A stretch of 64,000 bases of DNA, taken from assembly GCA_964518565.1 (NCBI GenBank), contig CAZFGX010000001.1, positions 75,046-139,045 on the forward strand. The letters run 5' to 3'. The first letter of the stretch is position 1, and each line of letters begins with the position of its first letter. Positions 1 through 49,983 of the stretch are shown piece after piece. This DNA comes from an uncultured Gammaproteobacteria bacterium. Lineage in GTDB: Bacteria > Patescibacteriota > Microgenomatia > CAZETR01 > Amesbacteraceae. The notes under the pieces were generated by a model, which ran no database searches, was not told where the DNA came from, and was given only the letters and a program-made list of their open reading frames with translations. A program made the translations under genes and the position numbers.

Positions 1-2060
1 ATCACATATCCAGCTCGACCTTGAGAGATGGATCGTAGTTTTGTGGCATAGCCAGACATTTCCGCCAGTGGTACGTATGCGACGATAATCGTCAGATTGG
101 CTCGTTTATCAGTGCCCAAAATCTGGGCTCGTTTAGAAGATAGATCTCCAATCACGTCTCCCATAAAGTCATCTGGAGTAGATACTTCGACTTTCATGAC
201 CGGTTCCAAAAGACATGGATCAGCTGTCTTAGTCGTATGTTGAAACGCCATAGAACCAGCAATCTTAAAGGCCATTTCAGACGAATCCACATCGTGGTAA
301 GAACCGTCATATAGAGTGATTTTTACGTCAGTAGTTGGGAATCCAGCCACGACCCCTGTTTCCATAGCTTCTTTGATACCTTTTTCTACTGCCGGAATAA
401 ACTCTCCAGGAATAGCACCACCTTTGATAGCGTTTACCCACTCGTAGCCACCGCCACGAGGAAGTGGTTCGATACGAATATTACAATGACCATACTGTCC
501 ACGACCTCCAGATTGGCGAATGTATTTGCCTTCACCTTCAGCCAGTTTCTTGACTGTTTCTTTGTAAGCGACTTGTGGTGCTCCAGTAGTAGCTTCTACG
601 TTAAACTCTCGCTTCATACGATCTACGATAATTTCCAAATGCAGCTCACCCATACCTGAAATAATTGTTTGTCCAGTTTCAGCATTTGCTTTAATTCGGA
701 AGGTTGGATCTTCATCTCCCAATTTATTCAATGCATAACCCATTTTTTCTTGATCAGATTTAGTCTTTGGCTCAATAGCGAGTGAAATAACCGGTTCAGG
801 GAAAGAAATAGACTCCAACACAATAGGTGCCGACTTGTCACAGAGCGTGTTTCCGGTCGTTGTATCCCGCAATCCTACCAGAGCTACGATTTCTCCAGCA
901 TAAGCAATATCGATTTCTTCTCGTTTGTTTGCATGCATTAAAAGCATTCGGGAAATACGCTCTTCTTTTTGTTTTGATGCGTTCCAAATAGGTTGTCCAG
1001 CCTTCAAACTTCCAGAATAAATACGCACATATGTTAATCGGCCTACGTGTGGGTCAGTCTGAATTTTAAAGGCAAGACCTGCAAACTTTTCTTCGTTTAC
1101 TGTTTTACGTTGTACTTCCTCACCAGTGTAAGGGTCAGATCCCTTTACATGATCTACATCGGCTGGAGAAGGTAAGTATTCTACAATTGCATCCAACATT
1201 GGCTGAACCCCTTTATTACGCAAACTAGCTCCCGCATACACTGGCACCAATTTGTAGGCAATGACTGCTCGACGTAAGGCTTTTTTCAAATCCGGCACGC
1301 TTGGTTCTTCACCATTTAAGAATCGAGACAACAATTCGTCATCAGTCTCACAAATCTGTTCAATTAGCTTTGCCCGCCATTTTTCTACCACTTCAGTCAT
1401 GTCGGCGGGGATCTCCTCTTCAGTATATTTGGCTCCAGTTTCATCTCCATGCCAAATCAGTGCCTTTCTCTCCAGTAGTAGCACTACACCTCGGAAGGTA
1501 TTTTCGGCCCCGACTGGATAGGCCATCACAGCTGGATTTGCGCCGAGTCGGTCGATTACTGCTCGAACTGTACCTTCAAAATTTGCCCCCAATTTATCAT
1601 TTTTGTTAATAAAAATGATTCGTGGCACTTTATATTTATCGGCTTGTCGCCAGACAGTTTCTGTCTGAGATTGCACAGTTTCTTCAGCATCCAACACAGT
1701 CACGGCTCCATCTAATACCCGCAGACTACGTTCCACTTCAGCGGTAAAGTCTACGTGACCTGGAGTATCAATCAAGTTAATACGGAAAGATTCATTACCC
1801 ACTGGGGAATTGGGATCTTTAACAGTCCAAAATGTCGTAGTAGCAGCAGAGACGATTGTGATTCCACGTTCTTTTTCTTGTTCCATCCAATCCATTTGGG
1901 TGTCACCATCATCAATATCACCAATCTTGTAGCTCTTGCCTGTATAAAATAAAATTCGTTCAGATGTTGTGGTTTTGCCGGCATCGATGTGCGCAATAAT
2001 GCCGATATTTCGGACTTGATCCAAAGGAACGATACGATTTGTTGTTTTTACGTCAGCCAT
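1..2060 (-). CDS. fusA: Elongation factor G, 3' end truncated by the window edge. Start Met at 2058-2060.
   Basis: Reverse-strand translation from 2060 gives [42 protein letters not shown] (EF-G G-domain). Reverse translation of the first window bases gives the EF-G C-terminal motif [18 protein letters not shown]. It is absent from the ORF track because the ORF runs off the edge. Confidence 0.9.
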
Positions 2061-2088: not shown

Positions 2089-4626
2089 TTATTTCCACAG
2101 GTTCAAAAAACTCTTACTGTAAAGGGCCGCTCCAAACCATAACCAGTTTTGTTCATAGTAGTTCGTTGATTGTTTTAGACCGTCTCCATCAAAATATTCC
2201 CGGTACACTTGCCCAGCCAGCAACGGGTCAGTTTCGGAAAAAACGGCCAATGGGCCTGTCAGGGTAGATAGGGTAGAGTAGGGCACCTGCTCTCTGCCAG
2301 ACAAGTCATACTCCGCTACTACTCGTTTACCATTGTGCCATGTCGATCCAAAAAAACTCTGCATTACTTCAGTCAATTCAGATTTAGCTCGATCATCACC
2401 GAACCATTGTGCATCTATAGCTATACGAAAATACGCCCGAAATGCATCAAAGCCATACAGGTCAGCGCCCGATCCCATAAATCTCGACCCACTATAAAAT
2501 TGTCCAGTTTTTTTATCTATCCACAACCAATTAGGCATCAGTCCCACTGGCGACAGTGTTCGAATACGCCCATACGTCTCATATGTATCATCTACCAACT
2601 GCATCCACGGATGACCAGGATCTATTTGACTAAAAATCTTGTAATACGCTGGCGAGAAGTAAGATGGATTGATCAGATACCCATTTTCTCGGGCTAAGTC
2701 CGGCCCTGCGATCAAATAATACTTCCCCTGTATCAGTACAACTTCTCGTTTCCAGATATCAGAAGTTATTGTTTTTGCCGCCGTCAAATATGCTGGGTTG
2801 TTCCAACGCTTACTGGCAAATGCCAATGCAATTGCCGTGTCCAAATCAGCGTCACTTGCTGCGGCGGAATCTTTTAGTTGATTATCTTTCCATAGCCACG
2901 ACAACAATTTATCCGAATCACGAAATTGCATATGGTCTCGAGTCCATTGCCAGACGCCATCAAATGTCGCCTGGTCGTTCATCTGTACCGCTCGCAACAT
3001 GGCGTACGCCTGGCCTTCAGAAGTAGTTTGTTCGCTTTGTGGGTCAATAATTTGTCCGTAAGAATGAATAAAGCTGGATTTATAAAAATTCCACGAGTCT
3101 GTCAGCTGAATTTGTTCATCGCTGCGAACCTTATAAATCGCCATCCAATCCCCATTGGCGGAAATATGGCGCTCTACATTGACATAGGTGGTTGTATCCA
3201 TGCCCCATTGAGTAACCAGATCAGCGTGAGACAACGCGAGTTCTATTGTCGGAGCGTTGAGTTCGCCAATCTGTTTCAACATTTCATGACTCAAAACAAT
3301 GTAATCGATGGATCGCCAATCCCCCTGCAATTTTTTTTCAAACACATCTCGGTCTCGCGCCACCTTCCAAAACCAATCCGCATTCGCAAATGTGGGCTCG
3401 TCTGGATGTTTGCCATACCACAAGTCATCTAAGATCGACGCATCAATTGCCATATGTGAATCTTCTGGCAACGTTTGCTTAATATAATTCACCGCCTGAC
3501 GATATGGCTCGTTCTCATTTTTGTAGTAATGCTTTACTCCCATCAGTAAAAACGCCACCATGACAATACCCAACACAACTGCCCAATGCAGTTTTTTCAC
3601 CACCTGTTGCACAACCAACCCAAAACACCACCCCGCAAACGGAAATATCGGCACGATATAAAAATCAATCACTAAGGCATTGCGCAATAAGAAAAAACCA
3701 AATCCAGCAGCCAGCAGTGCTGGCAACCGAAATGTCTTATTCCATAATGCCAGTCCACTTGCTGCCAAAATACTCACTATTCCTCCCCACACCACAATCA
3801 CATCCCGGCTCACCCATGTTCGCCACGCCATTCGAAATAGACTATCTGGATGCCAAAAGGGGACATGTACTCCTCGTCCCAATTGTTGCATCAAACTACC
3901 AAGTAAGCTCACTCGATCTCGGCTATCACCTAGCCACCCCACTGGCAATAGTTCCGTCTTTAGCGCCCCGTACAAAAAATAGCTACCTACTACCATTCCT
4001 ACAATACTCAACCACAGTCCTATTCCCATCACTCGATGTCGTCTATCTAGTTGCCACAATAAATACACCATTCCAGGTAAAAAAAAGATAACCACTTCTT
4101 TAGTCAAGGCCGCAATCCCAAAACACACCGCCGACAACATAACATGTCGCAATGTTTTTTTACCCAAGTACAACCAACTAATAGCCGCCAACAACCAAAA
4201 CACCATAATATTGTCCAAAAGTACTCGTCGATGGTAATAAATTGCCAATGGCGAAATCGAAAAAAACACTACCGCCAATACCGCTGCCAAATGCCGCTGG
4301 CTGTGTTTGCGTACCAGCCAAAACAGCATCAACGAAGAAGCAATATGCAACACCAACATAAATACCCGACCAGTATCTACCGACATCCCAAATGTAAATA
4401 GCCCGCCAGTGGCCTTGATCCACCCAGCCAAAAAGATCCACCCAGCCGGCGCATGATCATACCAATAGGTATAAGGCGCCAATTTTCCCTGGCTCAGTAG
4501 TGACCACGCCTGTGAAATATATGTCCCTTCATCGTTTTCATAATACGGATAGTTGCGCATATTAAACCCATGCGCGACTGCCGCAATTACAAGAGCGACC
4601 AAGCAGATTTTCCAAGTCCTAGTCAT
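2089..4626 (-). CDS. 845-aa fusion protein. N-terminal polytopic GT-C fold glycosyltransferase domain (PMT/ArnT, GT39/83-like) with a loop-1 DE motif. C-terminal glycoside hydrolase family 8 (BcsZ-like endoglucanase) domain.
   Basis: N-terminus has many TM helices and the motif YYENDEGTYISQAWSL. C-terminal half has TSEGQAYAMLRAVQMNDQATFDGVWQWTRDHMQ and ASDADLDTAIALAFASKRW, a near match to the GH8 signature A-[ST]-D-[AG]-D-x2-[IM]-A. Confidence 0.6.
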   Translation of the reverse strand: MTRTWKICLVALVIAAVAHGFNMRNYPYYENDEGTYISQAWSLLSQGKLAPYTYWYDHAPAGWIFLAGWIKATGGLFTFGMSVDTGRVFMLVLHIASSLMLFWLVRKHSQRHLAAVLAVVFFSISPLAIYYHRRVLLDNIMVFWLLAAISWLYLGKKTLRHVMLSAVCFGIAALTKEVVIFFLPGMVYLLWQLDRRHRVMGIGLWLSIVGMVVGSYFLYGALKTELLPVGWLGDSRDRVSLLGSLMQQLGRGVHVPFWHPDSLFRMAWRTWVSRDVIVVWGGIVSILAASGLALWNKTFRLPALLAAGFGFFLLRNALVIDFYIVPIFPFAGWCFGLVVQQVVKKLHWAVVLGIVMVAFLLMGVKHYYKNENEPYRQAVNYIKQTLPEDSHMAIDASILDDLWYGKHPDEPTFANADWFWKVARDRDVFEKKLQGDWRSIDYIVLSHEMLKQIGELNAPTIELALSHADLVTQWGMDTTTYVNVERHISANGDWMAIYKVRSDEQIQLTDSWNFYKSSFIHSYGQIIDPQSEQTTSEGQAYAMLRAVQMNDQATFDGVWQWTRDHMQFRDSDKLLSWLWKDNQLKDSAAASDADLDTAIALAFASKRWNNPAYLTAAKTITSDIWKREVVLIQGKYYLIAGPDLARENGYLINPSYFSPAYYKIFSQIDPGHPWMQLVDDTYETYGRIRTLSPVGLMPNWLWIDKKTGQFYSGSRFMGSGADLYGFDAFRAYFRIAIDAQWFGDDRAKSELTEVMQSFFGSTWHNGKRVVAEYDLSGREQVPYSTLSTLTGPLAVFSETDPLLAGQVYREYFDGDGLKQSTNYYEQNWLWFGAALYSKSFLNLWK

Positions 4627-4627
4627 C

Positions 4628-6034
4628 TTATATTGTCAGGGGAACCTGACGATGTAAATTGTAATGGGTTGTCTTCTCCCATGCTAGATTGCGACTCAAA
4701 AATCTCACCCAGGCTCGAATGCCTGCAAACGCCAATATACATATATAAGGTAAGTAAGCCACAGTTATTTGCACAGGCATCCAGATGGGATATCCCAATC
4801 GAAAATCTCGACTAAATTGCCAAACTGCAATCTGAGTGACCACAAACTGTAATCCCAAAATTGCCAGTGGCAAAAACGACAACATGGCGACTGTCATCGG
4901 TAGGTGGTACAAGATTCCCACCATTGTCATAAATGGAGTCAAAAATAACAATCCCGCCAAGACCAATGGCAAAATGAGCAAATACCCTCCCAAGAATCGT
5001 TGCTTCCAAATCGGAAATCTCCACCAATCACCCTTACGCAGTATTTGTAAAAATCCTGTATTCCATCGAGTTCGTTGTTTAATAAACGACGCCACGTCAA
5101 TCGGTGTTTCTTCTTGAGTGGCATACGCTTCATGGTACACCACACTGGTTTTCGCCCCATGCAAACTCATTCGAATTCCAATATCCCCGTCTTCAGTCAA
5201 ACATGTCTCATCCCACCCACCGACCTCCAGTAGTCGTTCTCGTTTGAAAAATACCGTATTTCCACCCAATGGCACCACTCCTCGCTTTACAAACCAAGGC
5301 AAAATAGACTTAAACCAAAAATAATATTCCAGACAGTTTAACGCCGAAAACCATCGCGATCGATAATTCACCAGTTGCACTCCACCTTGCACTACATCAG
5401 CACTGTCTCGCACCATGGTAGCTTGTACCATGTGGTAAATATCCCGGTGTGGCTGGTCTTCTGCGTCAAATACCACCACCACATCGCCCTTTGCTGCTCG
5501 CAGCCCCCAATTCAGTTGGTTAGGTTTGTTTACAGGTAAATCATCTACCACTAGTACATGTACCCGCGACAATTGATCTGCCATTTGCTGCGCTGCCGCA
5601 ATAGTCTCTGTGTCATCCGAACGGACAATTACGATCAATTCTTTCAATTGATCTGGATAATCAATTGCGGCAATCGCCGTAATAGTTTGCCCAATCACAG
5701 CGGCCTCATGTCGTACTGGTAACAAAGCCGTAAATGATAGCTGTGCCGGTACAAAATCTGCCAATTCCGTTTCTTTCGGTTCATTCCAAGCATGCAGTGT
5801 CCAACCCAAAAACACCAGCGCCTGAATCGCCATAGCCAAGTAAAACACTGCCAGTCCTCCCACAATCAGCTGACTCACAGTTACCAGCGACCAATCAATC
5901 TGTCCACCACGCCACACCAGCCATCCCAAAAGAATAGCTGCAATCAAATAAGGAAACCGCAAATATTTTTTCATAAAAAAATAATTCATCGAAGAAAAAA
6001 GTTGGGGTTGGGAGCACGTTGCCCCCAACCCCAA
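4628..6034 (-). CDS. Processive family-2 glycosyltransferase (BcsA/PgaC/NodC-like polysaccharide synthase), membrane-embedded.
   Basis: 468 aa with TM helices at both ends. Motifs DDTETIAAAQ, VVVFDAEDQ (DxD), CLTEDGDIGIRM (TED) and QRTRWNTGF (QxxRW). Confidence 0.7.
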   Translation of the reverse strand: MGLGATCSQPQLFSSMNYFFMKKYLRFPYLIAAILLGWLVWRGGQIDWSLVTVSQLIVGGLAVFYLAMAIQALVFLGWTLHAWNEPKETELADFVPAQLSFTALLPVRHEAAVIGQTITAIAAIDYPDQLKELIVIVRSDDTETIAAAQQMADQLSRVHVLVVDDLPVNKPNQLNWGLRAAKGDVVVVFDAEDQPHRDIYHMVQATMVRDSADVVQGGVQLVNYRSRWFSALNCLEYYFWFKSILPWFVKRGVVPLGGNTVFFKRERLLEVGGWDETCLTEDGDIGIRMSLHGAKTSVVYHEAYATQEETPIDVASFIKQRTRWNTGFLQILRKGDWWRFPIWKQRFLGGYLLILPLVLAGLLFLTPFMTMVGILYHLPMTVAMLSFLPLAILGLQFVVTQIAVWQFSRDFRLGYPIWMPVQITVAYLPYICILAFAGIRAWVRFLSRNLAWEKTTHYNLHRQVPLTI

Positions 6035-6039
6035 AAAAA

Positions 6040-7320
6040 CTAACGTATTACCATCGGCACAAACAGTCCGTATTTGAACTGTAAGCCAACGGAAATGCTT
6101 TGCGTAGACTCTGTCAACACAGTAGTGGTTCCTAGTTCATCCACTGTGCTATCACCGCCCACCACAAACTTGTATCCATCTGGCGCGCTCACCGTCACCG
6201 TGTAAGGGTTCTCGGGGCATCCCAGCGCAGTGCAATCAATCTGTTTAAACTGCGTATTGATATACCCCTGATCCACAGTCGTCGTGGTAAATGCGAAAGT
6301 CGAACTGACGTTGACCGTCACCGTGATGCCATCTGGCCCCACCGTATGATCATTGTTCAATCCGTCCCGATTCGTATCGATCCACAACCGACCATAGATA
6401 GTCGTGGTTTGTTCCAGTGTCGGAGAAATCGCGGTTTCAATCCAACCGATATTGGTCCAGTCATTAAATGCTGGTCCAAATCGACTCGAATAGTTATCCA
6501 GATTCACTTCCAATGCGCCAGTCAAAATCACCCCTGCGGATAGTTCTTGATCTTGACCATCATGCGCCAAGATCATCCAGCCGTTACTAAGGCCAGACAC
6601 ATATGTCACATCGTGGCTTGGATCCCAGCCGAGCGCATCCTTTTCCAAAGGGAGTCGAAATCCTGAAAACGTCTTGGCTCCCAGATCAACCGTTTCCAAC
6701 ACATACGGCGTCCCGCTGACCACATTAGTCAAGGTCATGCCATATGTATTAGCCACCAGTTGGATTACTCCACCTGGCGCTTTGATATCCAGAGCTGGAC
6801 TATGCTCCATCAATGTCAGGTGTAGATCGCATTGCTGCTGCATCCACACGCTATCAATGAAGTCATTCCATGCCCCAAACTGAAAACGTGGAACACCAAG
6901 GGTATCCAACTCGACCGTAAAAAAGTCCGTCGGTCGAATCGAGAAAAACGCCTTGCCGCCATCGCGGCTACCAGCAAACATTGTCAAACACGAGGTTCGC
7001 CCCTCAATGTAGGAAATACTTGTGGTAATTGGTGCACTCCATTGTGCTGGCGTCGTGCCTGGTAGTTGCACGCCTCGAAAGCTCATTAGTGGCAATTTTT
7101 CTACCGCCACACTCGGTGCCAACTGCGTATCAGTCAACACGTTCGACACCCGAAAGCCATCCGAGTCTGCATGAATTCCAAGGATGTATCCTCGGTTTAA
7201 TCCATGCTGATACAGACCCACGTCTGTGTACGCATACTGCAAGACTGGCTCGGCTGCCCGTACAGGCATAAACGAAAACAGACTCAACAAAACAGCCATG
7301 AATACACTTGCAAACCGCAT
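6040..7320 (-). CDS. Secreted protein of unknown function with an N-terminal signal peptide. First gene of the polysaccharide locus.
   Basis: Start chosen at MRFASVFMAVLLSLFSFMPVRAAEP. GGAGG lies 5 nt upstream on the - strand. There is a C-terminal Asp/Thr-rich segment (DTNRDGLNNDHTVGPDGITVT). The track ORF extends 11 codons further upstream (to 7353). Confidence 0.5.
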   Translation of the reverse strand: MRFASVFMAVLLSLFSFMPVRAAEPVLQYAYTDVGLYQHGLNRGYILGIHADSDGFRVSNVLTDTQLAPSVAVEKLPLMSFRGVQLPGTTPAQWSAPITTSISYIEGRTSCLTMFAGSRDGGKAFFSIRPTDFFTVELDTLGVPRFQFGAWNDFIDSVWMQQQCDLHLTLMEHSPALDIKAPGGVIQLVANTYGMTLTNVVSGTPYVLETVDLGAKTFSGFRLPLEKDALGWDPSHDVTYVSGLSNGWMILAHDGQDQELSAGVILTGALEVNLDNYSSRFGPAFNDWTNIGWIETAISPTLEQTTTIYGRLWIDTNRDGLNNDHTVGPDGITVTVNVSSTFAFTTTTVDQGYINTQFKQIDCTALGCPENPYTVTVSAPDGYKFVVGGDSTVDELGTTTVLTESTQSISVGLQFKYGLFVPMVIR

Positions 7321-7493
7321 ATCGCCTCCAAAAATGAATGAATGAAAAACCATTAATACGTCGCAATATGTGCTACTTTGTACTTCGATGAATTGTTAAG
7401 GAACCTCTCAAATTATCCCATAAAATAGCAAGAAAATCAACACTATAGGATATAGACGCCTTAGCACTCATAGAGTAGAATTGCCAATATACT

Positions 7494-8498: not shown

Positions 8499-9293
8499 TT
8501 ATTGTTTCTCAATAAATTTAATCAAATCATTTAGTTTATTCTTCTGAAGATCTAAACATTCCACAAAATATTTTTGTGTCATAAACGATGTTGGGTCAAA
8601 TAATGCCGAGATATTATTTTTATCAATTTCGAGCCATAACTTCATCAGTTCTGAATAAATAGCCGATAAATCCTCCGAACGCTTTCCAGAAAAACACTCC
8701 TGACTAACGCGTTCTAATCTTAAGCTCGTATCTCCTGGAAAAAACTCCACAAAGCCATCCATAAATAGTTCCGCCCCCTGAGCAAACCCCACATTCCCAA
8801 CACACTTTAAAGATGTTTCAATCAAGGCAAGCAGTCGTGAGACAAATGCCGAATAATTTGTATCGCGATCTTCACAATGTAGTCTTTTTTCAAACAAAAA
8901 TTGCTTTGTATTTCTATGTCTTTCACAAAAGTCATGCAGTTCCAGTAAGAGGTCTTGTTTAAATTTTTCTGCTTTCTCTGGATAGGTATCAAGATAATAG
9001 GGAATATCCGCCAATCGTTCACAGACATCTGCTAGGTCTGAATATAACTGCTTGCTACCATTTTTATTAACAAGGCTAAGTGAAATATAGTGCCCTGCAT
9101 CAATCAAATCATCAAAATCACACATCTCAGTAAAGTATTGATCAGCCACAAAAATTAGCAGTTCTACTTTCCGGTCATAGGACAAATTTTTCACATCCGA
9201 ATCAGTTCCAAACCGTTGCAAATAGAGATCGATCCCAGACAAGTGAGGGTTCTTGGAGGTGTTTTTATGGTCCATATTCCACAAATTATACAA
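8499..9293 (-). CDS. Hypothetical 264-aa cytoplasmic protein. Downstream partner of the zinc-ribbon repeat protein. No recognisable family.
   Basis: Long ORF with no signal peptide or TM segment. It lies 36 nt downstream of 9330-10112 on the same strand. By eye it is AT-rich compared with its neighbours. Confidence 0.5.
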   Translation of the reverse strand: MYNLWNMDHKNTSKNPHLSGIDLYLQRFGTDSDVKNLSYDRKVELLIFVADQYFTEMCDFDDLIDAGHYISLSLVNKNGSKQLYSDLADVCERLADIPYYLDTYPEKAEKFKQDLLLELHDFCERHRNTKQFLFEKRLHCEDRDTNYSAFVSRLLALIETSLKCVGNVGFAQGAELFMDGFVEFFPGDTSLRLERVSQECFSGKRSEDLSAIYSELMKLWLEIDKNNISALFDPTSFMTQKYFVECLDLQKNKLNDLIKFIEKQ

Positions 9294-9329: not shown

Positions 9330-10112
9330 TTAATCATCGTTTCCGAAAAGACTAAAGGGCTTATTAGCTTTATAGCTTGCTCTCTGGCCGTTTTCTTTAT
9401 ATCCATACTCTATCCCATGTTCATTAAGAACCTCGTTCGAAAATTTATGGAAGTCAGCCGATACTCGAAAGTGGTCAGAATATACAGTTATATGCCAATA
9501 GTCTGGACCTAAACGAGAATCCGCCTCCTTTCTAGAACTACCTGTAGATTGACGCCAATATGTCGCAAGAGCCGAGTTTGCAACAAATTGGTAATTAGAC
9601 CTCTTAGACATCTCTAAACATCTTTTACAATAGTCGGGCTGCGAAACCCAATCATGATGATATTTTACTTGATTACCACATCTCGAATTTGCACAGTCTT
9701 TTTCAGACCATCCTTTACACTTAGAACAGTATTTGGGAATCGAATGTGCAGTATCGTGATACTTAATTTCCCCACCACAATTTGGACAATTAACATAACG
9801 AAACCCCTTACACTCATTACAATACTCCGGTACATTGTCCCATTTATCGTGGAATCGTAAATCTCTTTGACAATCAGGATTTTTACAAGTCTTAGTGCGC
9901 CAGCCTCGACAGTTATTGCAATACTCAGGTATTCGATCCCAAAAAACCTTATAAGACACCTCACCATAACAATCAGGATTTGCGCAATTTTTTGTACACA
10001 GCTCATTGCAGCTCCTGCAGTATTCCGGAATTTTGTTCCAGTCATACCGATAGCTAATATCGGTTCCACAGTGCTTACAACTCGTCGTACCCCAATAATC
10101 TTCCCGTGCCAT
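9330..10112 (-). CDS. Cysteine-rich protein with five tandem zinc-ribbon-like repeats and a non-repetitive C-terminal domain of about 90 aa. Unknown function.
   Basis: Repeats: CKHCGTDISYRYDWNKIPEYCRSC / CANPDCYGEVSYKVFWDRIPEYCNNC / CKNPDCQRDLRFHDKWDNVPEYCNEC / CPNCGGEIKYHDTAHSIPKYCSKC / CANSRCGNQVKYHHDWVSQPDYCKRC. A strong RBS (taggagga) lies upstream on the - strand. Confidence 0.6.
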   Translation of the reverse strand: MAREDYWGTTSCKHCGTDISYRYDWNKIPEYCRSCNELCTKNCANPDCYGEVSYKVFWDRIPEYCNNCRGWRTKTCKNPDCQRDLRFHDKWDNVPEYCNECKGFRYVNCPNCGGEIKYHDTAHSIPKYCSKCKGWSEKDCANSRCGNQVKYHHDWVSQPDYCKRCLEMSKRSNYQFVANSALATYWRQSTGSSRKEADSRLGPDYWHITVYSDHFRVSADFHKFSNEVLNEHGIEYGYKENGQRASYKANKPFSLFGNDD

Positions 10113-41150: not shown

Positions 41151-41224
41151 CGGGGCGGAGTTTGACGGTAGAATGCGCGCATGGGGTGCGTGTGGAGGCA
41201 GTTCAATTCTGCCCGCCCCGACCA
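41151..41224 (+). tRNA. tRNA-Pro (anticodon GGG), 74 nt with genomically encoded 3' CCA.
   Basis: Folded by hand. Acceptor CGGGGCG/CGCCCCG (7 perfect bp), discriminator A, then CCA. T-arm GGCAG-TTCAATT-CTGCC. Anticodon arm CGCGC-ATGGGGT-GCGTG with U33, GGG at 34-36 and G37. 4-nt variable loop. The D-stem is weak (GTTT/GAAT with two G-U pairs). A TATAAT box lies at 41136-41141. Confidence 0.7.
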
Positions 41225-49718: not shown

Positions 49719-49725
49719 CTTGTGC

Positions 49726-49983
49726 CTGGAAGCGAATAAGCCAGATTCTGTATTAGTAACCATCTGTCTTTGCCCTCATGCTTTCGGTCTCGGGAAGGCG
49801 TCCTAATAGCGACCGGGTCGGAGGTTGCAGCGGGGAGGATTGCCCGTTTCACCCGAGCTTTACCTCGGTTCGTCACTGTTGCTCTAACTAGCGCTTGCGC
49901 GTCCCCCGCAAAGCGGGGGCACCCTGCCTTCTGCTGTCTGGACTTTCCTCTCCCCAAGGGGAGTAGTTACTGGCTTCCAGGCC
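49726..49983 (-). ncRNA. rnpB: RNase P RNA (bacterial, strongly minimised, about 258 nt).
   Basis: Reverse complement contains P1 (GCCUGGAAGC...GCUUCCAGGC), a P3 hairpin (CUCCCC-UUGG-GGGGAG), P4 5' strand GAGGAAAGUCC, the conserved AGAAGGCAGGGUGCC and GGUAAAGCUCGGGUGAAACGGGCAA regions, and P4 3' strand ACAGAAUCUGGCUUA. The overlapping ORFs 49667-49957 (-) and 49770-50009 (+) are spurious. Confidence 0.75.

Follow-up and report, generated by a model that had tools for sequence, protein, structure and literature searches.

A conserved fusion of a GT-C glycosyltransferase and a family 8 glycoside hydrolase, paired with a processive GT2 synthase in Patescibacteria

Membrane glycosyltransferases of the GT-C class that carry a C-terminal carbohydrate module for binding the acceptor have been described, among them GT136 ORF12 (PMC11127046) and EmbC (PMC3044687), and a Streptomyces glycan system, CslA-GlxA-CslZ, includes an enzyme, CslZ, that is described as a member of glycoside hydrolase family 6 (GH6) (PMC9040799). 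Here we describe a gene that joins a GT-C membrane domain, an alpha/beta domain and a hydrolase domain of glycoside hydrolase family 8 (GH8) in one chain of 845 residues. It lies on the minus strand at 2089..4626 (stop codon included) of a 64,000-nucleotide stretch, referred to below as the window, which spans positions 75,046 to 139,045 of contig CAZFGX010000001.1 in GenBank assembly GCA_964518565.1. From its sequence we conclude that the gene encodes a genuine, conserved and predicted tripartite envelope enzyme, whose family probably helps to build a cell-surface sugar polymer in ultra-small (CPR) bacteria and in others of Gram-positive type. The novelty lies in the GT-C–GH8 fusion and in its pairing with a processive family 2 glycosyltransferase (GT2); the kinds of component are known, and the family is already present in databases under generic automated names, its homologues being called only 'glycosyl hydrolase family 8' or 'endoglucanase Y / ArnT-like glycosyltransferase'. 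Searches of the literature for this fusion, and for GH8 or cellulose synthase in the candidate phyla radiation (CPR), returned no description of a GT-C–GH8 or GT-C–GH3 protein or of the pairing of a GT-C fusion with a processive GT2; one CPR paper that mentions GH8 tallies GH8 'cellulases' and nothing further.

Anatomy of the fusion protein

The gene is an uninterrupted open reading frame (ORF) of 845 codons; the plus-strand reading of the same interval is riddled with stops and was rejected. An identical gene with identical neighbors is present in the independent Logan assembly of run SRR16481186, and full-length homologues were drawn from NCBI, JGI, ENA and Logan. AlphaFold2 (AF2), supplied with an alignment of 64 sequences, returns a single confident model of the whole protein, with a predicted local distance difference test (pLDDT) of 92.3 and a predicted TM-score (pTM) of 0.86. 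A first-pass annotation, made from the letters of the window, had read the protein as a GT-C half and a GH8 part separated by a linker. The two halves stand, and the motifs that it quoted are found at residues 28-39 (YYENDEGTYISQ), 535-546 (TSEGQAYAMLRA) and 590-608 (ASDADLDTAIALAFASKRW). Its membrane domain of about 430 residues with 11-12 helices contracts, on the evidence of the AF2 model, hydropathy, Foldseek and conservation, to residues 1-365 (3532..4626, minus strand) with 11 transmembrane helices, and the supposed linker proves to be a conserved, folded alpha/beta domain of about 135 residues (residues 366-500; 3127..3531, minus strand), defined by AF2 secondary structure at pLDDT >80 and by a hidden Markov model (HMM) of its own. 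This separate model (MID) matches every GT-C relative, fused or unfused, and residues K421 and D425 of the domain are invariant.

The 11 helices of the model and the positive-inside pattern from hydropathy give the protein an N-in, C-out topology, since short loops rich in Lys and Arg (106-112, 154-161, 192-198, 295-301 and 343-345) alternate with long ones (26-81 and 223-275). This arrangement places the middle and GH8 domains outside the cytoplasm, the latter facing the same side of the membrane as the catalytic loop of the GT-C, as had been predicted.

The N-terminal half scores above threshold with two Pfam families, PMT (PF02366; residues 67-193, 32.7 bits, cut-off 22.7) and PMT_2 (PF13231; residues 78-212, 32.4 bits, cut-off 26.1). 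The PMT match is partial, covering profile positions 66-200 of 245, and neither PMT_4TMC (PF16192) nor MIR is matched at E<=0.1 anywhere in the protein; judged by these profiles, it lacks the full-length PMT region and C-terminal PMT_4TMC that characterize family GT39. It is not an ArnT of family GT83 either, given that the NCBIfam model for ArnT finds no match and no equivalog score is reached, that there are 11 rather than 13 transmembrane helices and that the TM-score to ArnT (5f15) is 0.58. No curated NCBIfam model reaches its own cut-off with the fusion protein, which has a weak match to an Agl23-type GT-C model. A phmmer search of PDB sequences with the GT-C half found no match, and a separate AF2 model of residues 1-500 (pLDDT 90.8) was therefore compared with solved structures by Foldseek. 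Its best 34 PDB matches are all GT-C enzymes, including STT3, ArnT 5f15, AglB, ALG12/ALG9, Pmt4, DPY19, EmbA/B and AftA/B, with STT3, ArnT and ALG12 ranked above Pmt; sequence identity to the solved GT-C structures is 12-16% (14% to ArnT 5f15) and TM-scores are 0.5-0.58. The N-terminal half is thus modeled as a GT-C-A-fold enzyme without a close solved relative. It has the multi-helix membrane fold and the long, acidic first outer loop of the GT-C superfamily, and its assignment as PMT/ArnT-like is borne out by both Pfam and Foldseek.

Conservation was measured on 120 listed homologues (42-48% identity), out of 758 found at E<=1e-5 by a word-indexed search. Two motifs of the first outer loop are invariant, P27..D32-E33-G-T-Y36 and Y54-W-Y-D57-H58-x-P60-x-G62-W63. 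D32 and E33, whose codons lie at 4528..4533 on the minus strand, form the loop-1 'DE' catalytic motif of GT-C enzymes already pointed out in the first-pass annotation, and are kept in 119/119 full-length homologues and in all 52 of a set of more distant relatives. Residues D57, H58, P60, R133, D138, N139, K176, E225, R251 and D275 are kept in 120/120 homologues, and Y36, like D57, H58, P60, R133, D138, K176, E225 and R251, is invariant in the homologues and in the distant set alike. The signature P..DEGTY.SQAW...YTYWYDHPPLGW is found in each of these 52 relatives, which include Curtobacterium, Plantibacter, Chloroflexota, Rubrobacteraceae and Dormibacterota.

The C-terminal half (residues 501-845; 2089..3126, minus strand) is a GH8 member by profile, by its (alpha/alpha)6 fold and by its three catalytic residues. 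Glyco_hydro_8 (PF01270) matches residues 497-826 over profile positions 13-329 of 341 (E 3.9e-47, 161.4 bits, cut-off 24), so that the Pfam mapping places GH8, PMT and PMT_2 all above cut-off. Against PDB sequences, phmmer finds CelA (1cem, 4e-29) and BcsZ (7f81, 6e-27), and aligns E537, D592 and D727 to the acid E95, the -1 subsite aspartate D152 and the base D278 of CelA; the GH8 assignment of the earlier reading is secured by this alignment. The corresponding codons are at nt 3016-3018, 2851-2853 and 2446-2448 (minus strand). A Foldseek search with the whole protein is led by CMCax (1wzz), BcsZ (9b87/3qxq) and CelA (1cem) at TM-scores of 0.78-0.83, with CMCax and BcsZ at 0.80-0.83, and normalization by target length gives 0.77-0.87 to 1wzz, 3qxq, 1cem and 5gy3; within the GH8 region of the model, 10-residue pLDDT means are mostly >=90 and nowhere below 72. 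Among the homologues, E537 is kept in 119/120, D592 in 117/120 and D727 in 113/120, while D594 and D596 are kept in every one. Since catalytic residues are conserved at only 42-48% identity, both halves look enzymatically active. D727 is replaced in seven of the 120, and a minority of the family may therefore have lost hydrolysis.

Relatives and partner genes

The same fusion was found in other genomes, as the first-pass annotation had suggested looking for, in hundreds of homologues of 840-920 aa. Among those listed, 119/120 are 818-1136 aa long with 94-100% query coverage and the same architecture (the remaining one has 788 aa and 90% coverage), and they come from Roizman-, Woese-, Shapiro- and Levybacteria and from Saccharimonadales. 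The fusion occurs mostly in Patescibacteria, and also in Chloroflexota, Dormibacterota and Rubrobacteraceae. An exhaustive phmmer search with residues 1-500 against 1.84 billion cluster representatives returned 459 clusters (50% identity) at E<=1e-30; of the best 150, roughly 60% are as long as the fusion, and a further 35% or so measure about 500-570 aa. Species-representative genomes yielded at least 595 matching stretches. The architecture had been presented as an oddity; it is not rare in its lineages, and in a large family it is the rule.

Gene neighborhoods were examined in 85 fetched loci with per-domain HMMs, and counts refer to the 49 non-redundant loci that have the GT-C domain. GH8 is fused in 37/49 and unfused in 12/49, with a separate GH8 gene nearby in a Dormibacterota locus (L036), a Curtobacterium locus (L074) and a Plantibacter locus (L082). 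Two relatives (L037, 3959-6382, and protein P0354) carry the GT-C and middle domains followed by a NagZ-like GH3 domain in place of GH8; this domain scores 135 bits with a beta-N-acetylhexosaminidase model, and its strong PDB matches are all N-acetylglucosaminidases or hexosaminidases. Other members of the GT-C family have an additional C-terminal LysM domain (P0328) or an N-terminal DUF4388 regulatory-type domain (P0309, P0348 and P0381). In a neighbor-joining tree of the GT-C domain, the window protein falls in a large, mostly fused clade, and a separate clade that is always unfused comprises Microbacteriaceae, some Saccharibacteria and Limnocylindrales; the unfused set is carried by cultivable Microbacteriaceae (Curtobacterium, Frigoribacterium and Frondihabitans). 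Two tandem GT-C–GH8 fusion genes stand behind a single GT2 in two loci (L011, 1802-9264; L015, 903-6577), and on a Saccharimonadales contig (L003, 1-10640) a GT2 is paired with a membrane protein three times in succession, the partners being a PMT_2-type protein, a protein without a Pfam match and a GH8 fusion, in that order. The fusion is also carried by 'binchicken' metagenome-assembled genomes labeled Gammaproteobacteria, Pseudomonadales or Bdellovibrionales (L013, L018, L019, L020, L026, L027 and L030); these fall among Patescibacteria sequences in the GT-C tree, so the taxon labels look unreliable and were not counted as evidence for Proteobacteria.

Directly upstream of the fusion gene in the window, on the same strand, is a gene for a processive BcsA-like GT2 synthase of about 448-453 aa (4628..5989, minus strand; start ATG at 5989 or 5974), recognized by Pfam and by its PDB match. 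Its stop codon and the ATG of the fusion gene are 1 nt apart (TAA-G-ATG). The protein matches Glyco_tranf_2_3 (1.1e-39) and Glyco_trans_2_3, and its best PDB match is BcsA (4hg6/5ej1), with TED and QxxRW aligned, at the distant level of E 1e-8. The motifs FDAED, QGGVQ, LGGN, LTEDGD and KQRTRW and a C-terminal WEKT.H are kept among 23 orthologues, and with its DxD, TED and QxxRW motifs and flanking transmembrane helices the protein is a processive membrane GT2 of the BcsA/NodC/HAS/PgaC type. No BcsB-like gene is present at the locus and Pfam finds no PilZ domain in the GT2, so the arrangement is not that of a BcsZ within a bcs operon, where BcsA with PilZ and BcsB are found. An orthologous GT2 (150-480 bits) lies directly upstream on the same strand in 42/49 loci; three of the other seven are cut by a contig end, and in four the GT2 is missing, end-truncated, encoded on the opposite strand or separated by 1.5 kb. 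This recurrence supports the functional link with the neighboring GT2 that was first proposed from the window alone.

The relatives further reveal partners that would supply a lipid-linked sugar. A domain like dolichyl-phosphate mannose synthase (DPMS) occurs in 23/49 loci, and in 15 of them it forms a fused N-terminal extension of the processive GT2: in these upstream GT2 versions of about 700 aa, the extra N-terminal GT2 domain matches Pyrococcus DPMS (5mlz, E 1.6e-35) and then ArnC and GtrB. A recurrent separate neighbor matches 5mlz as well (E 6e-30). GtrA is found in at least 5/49 loci, downstream in L001 and as a fusion between DPMS and GT2 in L034, L061 and L069, and relatives such as these four hold the full set of DPMS-like protein, GtrA and GT-C. 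These partners, like the middle domain and the GH3 variants, had been overlooked in the first-pass annotation, which had the flanking domains right. In seven loci (L011, 3-1760; L012, L014, L022, L025, L032 and L073) GtrA is fused to an oxidoreductase resembling FAD-dependent amine oxidases, which, by analogy with DprE1-type enzymes, might modify the lipid-linked sugar donor. Every known GT-C enzyme takes its sugar from a donor linked to a lipid phosphate. Together with the Rosetta-stone fusions of DPMS and GtrA, this would argue that the GT-C domain is fed by a polyprenyl-phosphate hexose.

Upstream of the GT2 gene is a gene for a secreted SdrD_B-like protein of 437 aa (6040..7353, minus strand; SdrD_B 26.8 bits, below the Pfam cut-off). 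A terminator-like hairpin of 15 pairs (9 G-C) with a T-run separates the two (6002..6034, minus strand) and overlaps a mechanically listed TTG start of the GT2 gene, which places the true start downstream, at one of the two ATG codons; the Logan gene call gives the GT2 448 aa. The hairpin lies only about 13 nt before the likely start codon. A separate promoter has no room in this gap, and transcription that reads through from the surface-protein gene may be what expresses the GT2/fusion pair. None of the 85 related loci has a homologue of the SdrD_B-like protein; with 0/85 loci and a strong terminator before the GT2 gene, it was rejected as a conserved partner or acceptor. On the other flank, fusA, encoding elongation factor G, begins 28 nt past the stop codon of the fusion gene and continues beyond the first position of the window (1..2060, minus strand; a 687-codon open frame, MADVKTTNR...AHIDAGKTT). 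The seemingly ORF-free first 2 kb of the window is this gene leaving the edge, since the ORF lister omits such frames. The genes dnaJ, nusA, infB and pnp lie on the other side of the module, with the same synteny in L005.

Elsewhere in the window, a Cys-rich protein of 260 aa (9330-10112, minus strand) consists of about 6-7 tandem, zinc-ribbon-like modules of the form C..C...W(D/N).(I/V)PEYC..C and adjoins a 264-aa protein (8499-9293, minus strand); precomputed Pfam calls for an identical locus (L086) assign no family to either. RNase P RNA (49725-49981, minus strand) is the sole Rfam match at the gathering threshold in the 64 kb, and its best model is the archaeal-type RF00373 (87.6 bits, gathering threshold 84) despite the bacterial, CPR-like neighboring genes. 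ARAGORN finds only one tRNA gene in the 64 kb, tRNA-Pro (GGG) at 41151-41224 on the plus strand; Rfam gives no tRNA match at the gathering threshold.

A proposed mechanism and its rivals

We propose a model in which a beta-linked polymer made by the GT2 receives sugar from the GT-C domain outside the membrane and is cut or retained by the hydrolase domain, and we give this model an even chance of being correct. The GT2 would draw on a nucleotide sugar to polymerize a beta-linked polysaccharide, which it would extrude through the membrane. As its donor the GT-C domain would take, at the outer face, a sugar on polyprenyl phosphate; in relatives a DPMS-like GT2 would synthesize this donor and GtrA would flip it. 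The GT-C domain would use the donor to glycosylate the emerging polymer, as a branch, cap or primer. The tethered GH8 domain would bind the same chain and cut or trim it, as BcsZ does with cellulose, and in doing so set the chain length or release the product. The coupled trimming and transfer that the fusion had suggested at first reading is a reasonable inference from the domain architecture.

The product would be a beta-linked glycan, most likely of beta-1,4-glucan type. This assignment follows from three similarities: the GH8 half is closest to CelA and BcsZ; GH6 genes stand beside the GT2/GT-C pair in five loci and genes for GlxA-like galactose-oxidase/CBM4_9 proteins in four, as in Streptomyces CslA-GlxA-CslZ; and the nearest unfused GH8 relatives adjoin GT2s with clear Cellulose_synt matches.

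Several observations weigh against this model. The best NCBIfam match of the GT2 is PgaC/IcaA, whose cut-off of 422 bits is far above the 68 bits scored, and no curated equivalog is reached. With this match and the N-acetylhexosaminidase-like GH3 variants, the polymer may be something other than glucan, for instance one that contains N-acetylhexosamine. Likewise, the best NCBIfam match of the fusion protein is the BcsZ equivalog NF008305, at 125.4 bits against a cut-off of 299; by this measure the GH8 half is BcsZ-like but not a BcsZ orthologue. No DPMS-like or GtrA gene lies within the 64-kb window. A protein, a lipid or peptidoglycan is an equally plausible acceptor, and the relative that ends in LysM advises caution on this point. 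Polymer, donor sugar and acceptor are all identities that we infer from the genes.

One alternative, which we think quite improbable, is that the GT-C domain is a Pmt-like protein O-glycosyltransferase (GT39) that takes mannose from polyprenyl-phosphate-mannose and attaches it to Ser/Thr in secreted proteins such as the SdrD_B-like neighbor, while GH8 and GT2 serve a separate polysaccharide. The PMT and PMT_2 scores above their cut-offs, the DE motif and the secreted-protein gene just upstream would all fit, and the DPMS-like partners of relatives recall the pairing of Ppm1 with Pmt in Actinobacteria. Nevertheless, the surface-protein neighbor is kept in no related locus; the steady partner is a processive GT2, and the recurrent fusions and neighbors are glycanases (GH8, GH3 and GH6). 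The partial PMT match, the failure to detect PMT_4TMC and the Foldseek ranking, with STT3, ArnT and ALG12 before Pmt, point the same way.

It is similarly improbable that the GT-C domain builds or transfers a primer linked to lipid or to the cell wall, with the GH8 domain acting mainly as a transglycosylase that joins the synthase chains to this primer or to the wall. The idea resembles the old lipid-intermediate model of Agrobacterium cellulose synthesis that Matthysse reportedly advanced in 1995, and in which the endoglucanase CelC is said to serve as a transferase. It would account for the covalent coupling of a transferase dependent on lipid-linked sugar to a BcsZ-like domain; the C-terminal LysM of one relative suggests action at peptidoglycan, the NagZ-like GH3 variants are in keeping with it, and the position of the module among housekeeping genes (fusA, dnaJ, nusA and infB) fits a constitutive envelope function. 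The chemistry is the obstacle, for GH8 enzymes are inverting hydrolases and do not normally transglycosylate.

Still less probable is that one half is vestigial, the GT-C domain being only an anchor that tethers a BcsZ-like glucanase at the synthase, or the GH8 domain serving the GT-C only to bind carbohydrate, without catalysis. C-terminal modules with a purely binding role are indeed known in GT-C enzymes (PMC11127046, PMC3044687), and enzymes of the BcsZ type need a position near the synthase. Against this, at the identity levels given above, both halves have retained their catalytic residues almost without exception, the invariant residues of the GT-C domain are not ones that a mere anchor would keep, and the co-occurrence of DPMS and GtrA argues for an active GT-C. 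Finally, the fusion of two genes by an assembly or frameshift error, against which the first-pass annotation had advised a check, is refuted by the identical continuous gene in the independent assembly, by hundreds of full-length homologues and by the one confident AF2 model with its pTM of 0.86.

The model of extracytoplasmic glycosylation of a GT2-made polymer can be extended to a wider claim, which we rate as rather unlikely: that the GT2 and GT-C–GH8 pair, with DPMS and GtrA encoded elsewhere in the genome, would be the core machine for a major envelope glycopolymer of CPR/Patescibacteria and several Terrabacteria, a synthase-extruded beta-glycan that is primed, branched or anchored to the wall by a GT-C enzyme using lipid-linked sugar and whose own GH8 or GH3 domain processes the chain. 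If true, this would be a hybrid mechanism so far undescribed for any polysaccharide. The envelope chemistry of the CPR, whose members live attached to host cells, is essentially unknown, and an enzyme pair that is conserved and sits among housekeeping genes in hundreds of CPR species is a strong candidate for the synthesis of a major surface polymer. The fusion would also be a natural 'Rosetta stone' for the cooperation of glycanases such as BcsZ with synthases, and would link synthase-dependent polymerization with lipid-carrier-dependent extracytoplasmic glycosylation, which are usually treated apart. The unfused versions in cultivable Microbacteriaceae make the hypothesis directly testable.

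Comparison with described systems

The fusion protein shares with ArnT (GT83) and Pmt (GT39) the GT-C-A fold, a DE-type motif that opens outer loop 1 and is followed by an HPP-type motif, and the ability to pass the Pfam thresholds for PMT and PMT_2. It differs from ArnT in having 11 transmembrane helices where ArnT has 13, from Pmt in lacking the PMT_4TMC and MIR domains by Pfam, and from both in the invariant signature of its own family, DEGTY...YTYWYDHPPLGW.

In its pairing of a processive, multi-helix GT2 of the TED/QxxRW type with an extracytoplasmic GH8 whose fold and catalytic residues match, the locus resembles the BcsA-BcsZ operons and the CMCax system of Komagataeibacter. The differences are that BcsB and a PilZ domain (by Pfam) are lacking here, that the GH8 stays below the BcsZ equivalog cut-off (125 versus 299 bits), that the GT2 has only a remote likeness to BcsA (E 1e-8) and that the GH8 is covalently joined to a GT-C enzyme, which is the case in no Bcs system. 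The Streptomyces CslA-GlxA-CslZ system (PMC9040799; bioRxiv 10.1101/2023.11.20.567928) is likewise described as combining a cellulose-synthase-like GT2 with a beta-1,4-glycanase in a Gram-positive-type envelope, and loci related to ours also have GH6 and GlxA-like genes beside the GT2/GT-C pair. Its hydrolase is a GH6 rather than a GH8, the abstracts of these accounts and the gene-cluster passages of PMC9040799 mention no GT-C partner, and the likeness drawn here is one of gene content.

The three-component systems (GtrA/GtrB/GtrC; CsbB/GtcA/YfhO; ArnC/ArnT; GT136) also place a GT-C enzyme on the outer face, and relatives of the window protein pair theirs with a DPMS/GtrB-like synthase and a GtrA-family protein; GT136 ORF12 and EmbC further share with it the plan of a GT-C enzyme with a C-terminal glycan-binding module. 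Here, DPMS and GtrA fall outside the gene set of the 64-kb window, and the glycan to be modified would come from a synthase-type GT2, not from a Wzy or ABC pathway. Overall, the proposed mechanism would be a hybrid, part synthase-dependent pathway and part 'three-component' extracytoplasmic glycosylation, in which the C-terminal module of the GT-C enzyme is a hydrolase with intact catalytic residues, GH8 in the window protein and GH3 in variants.

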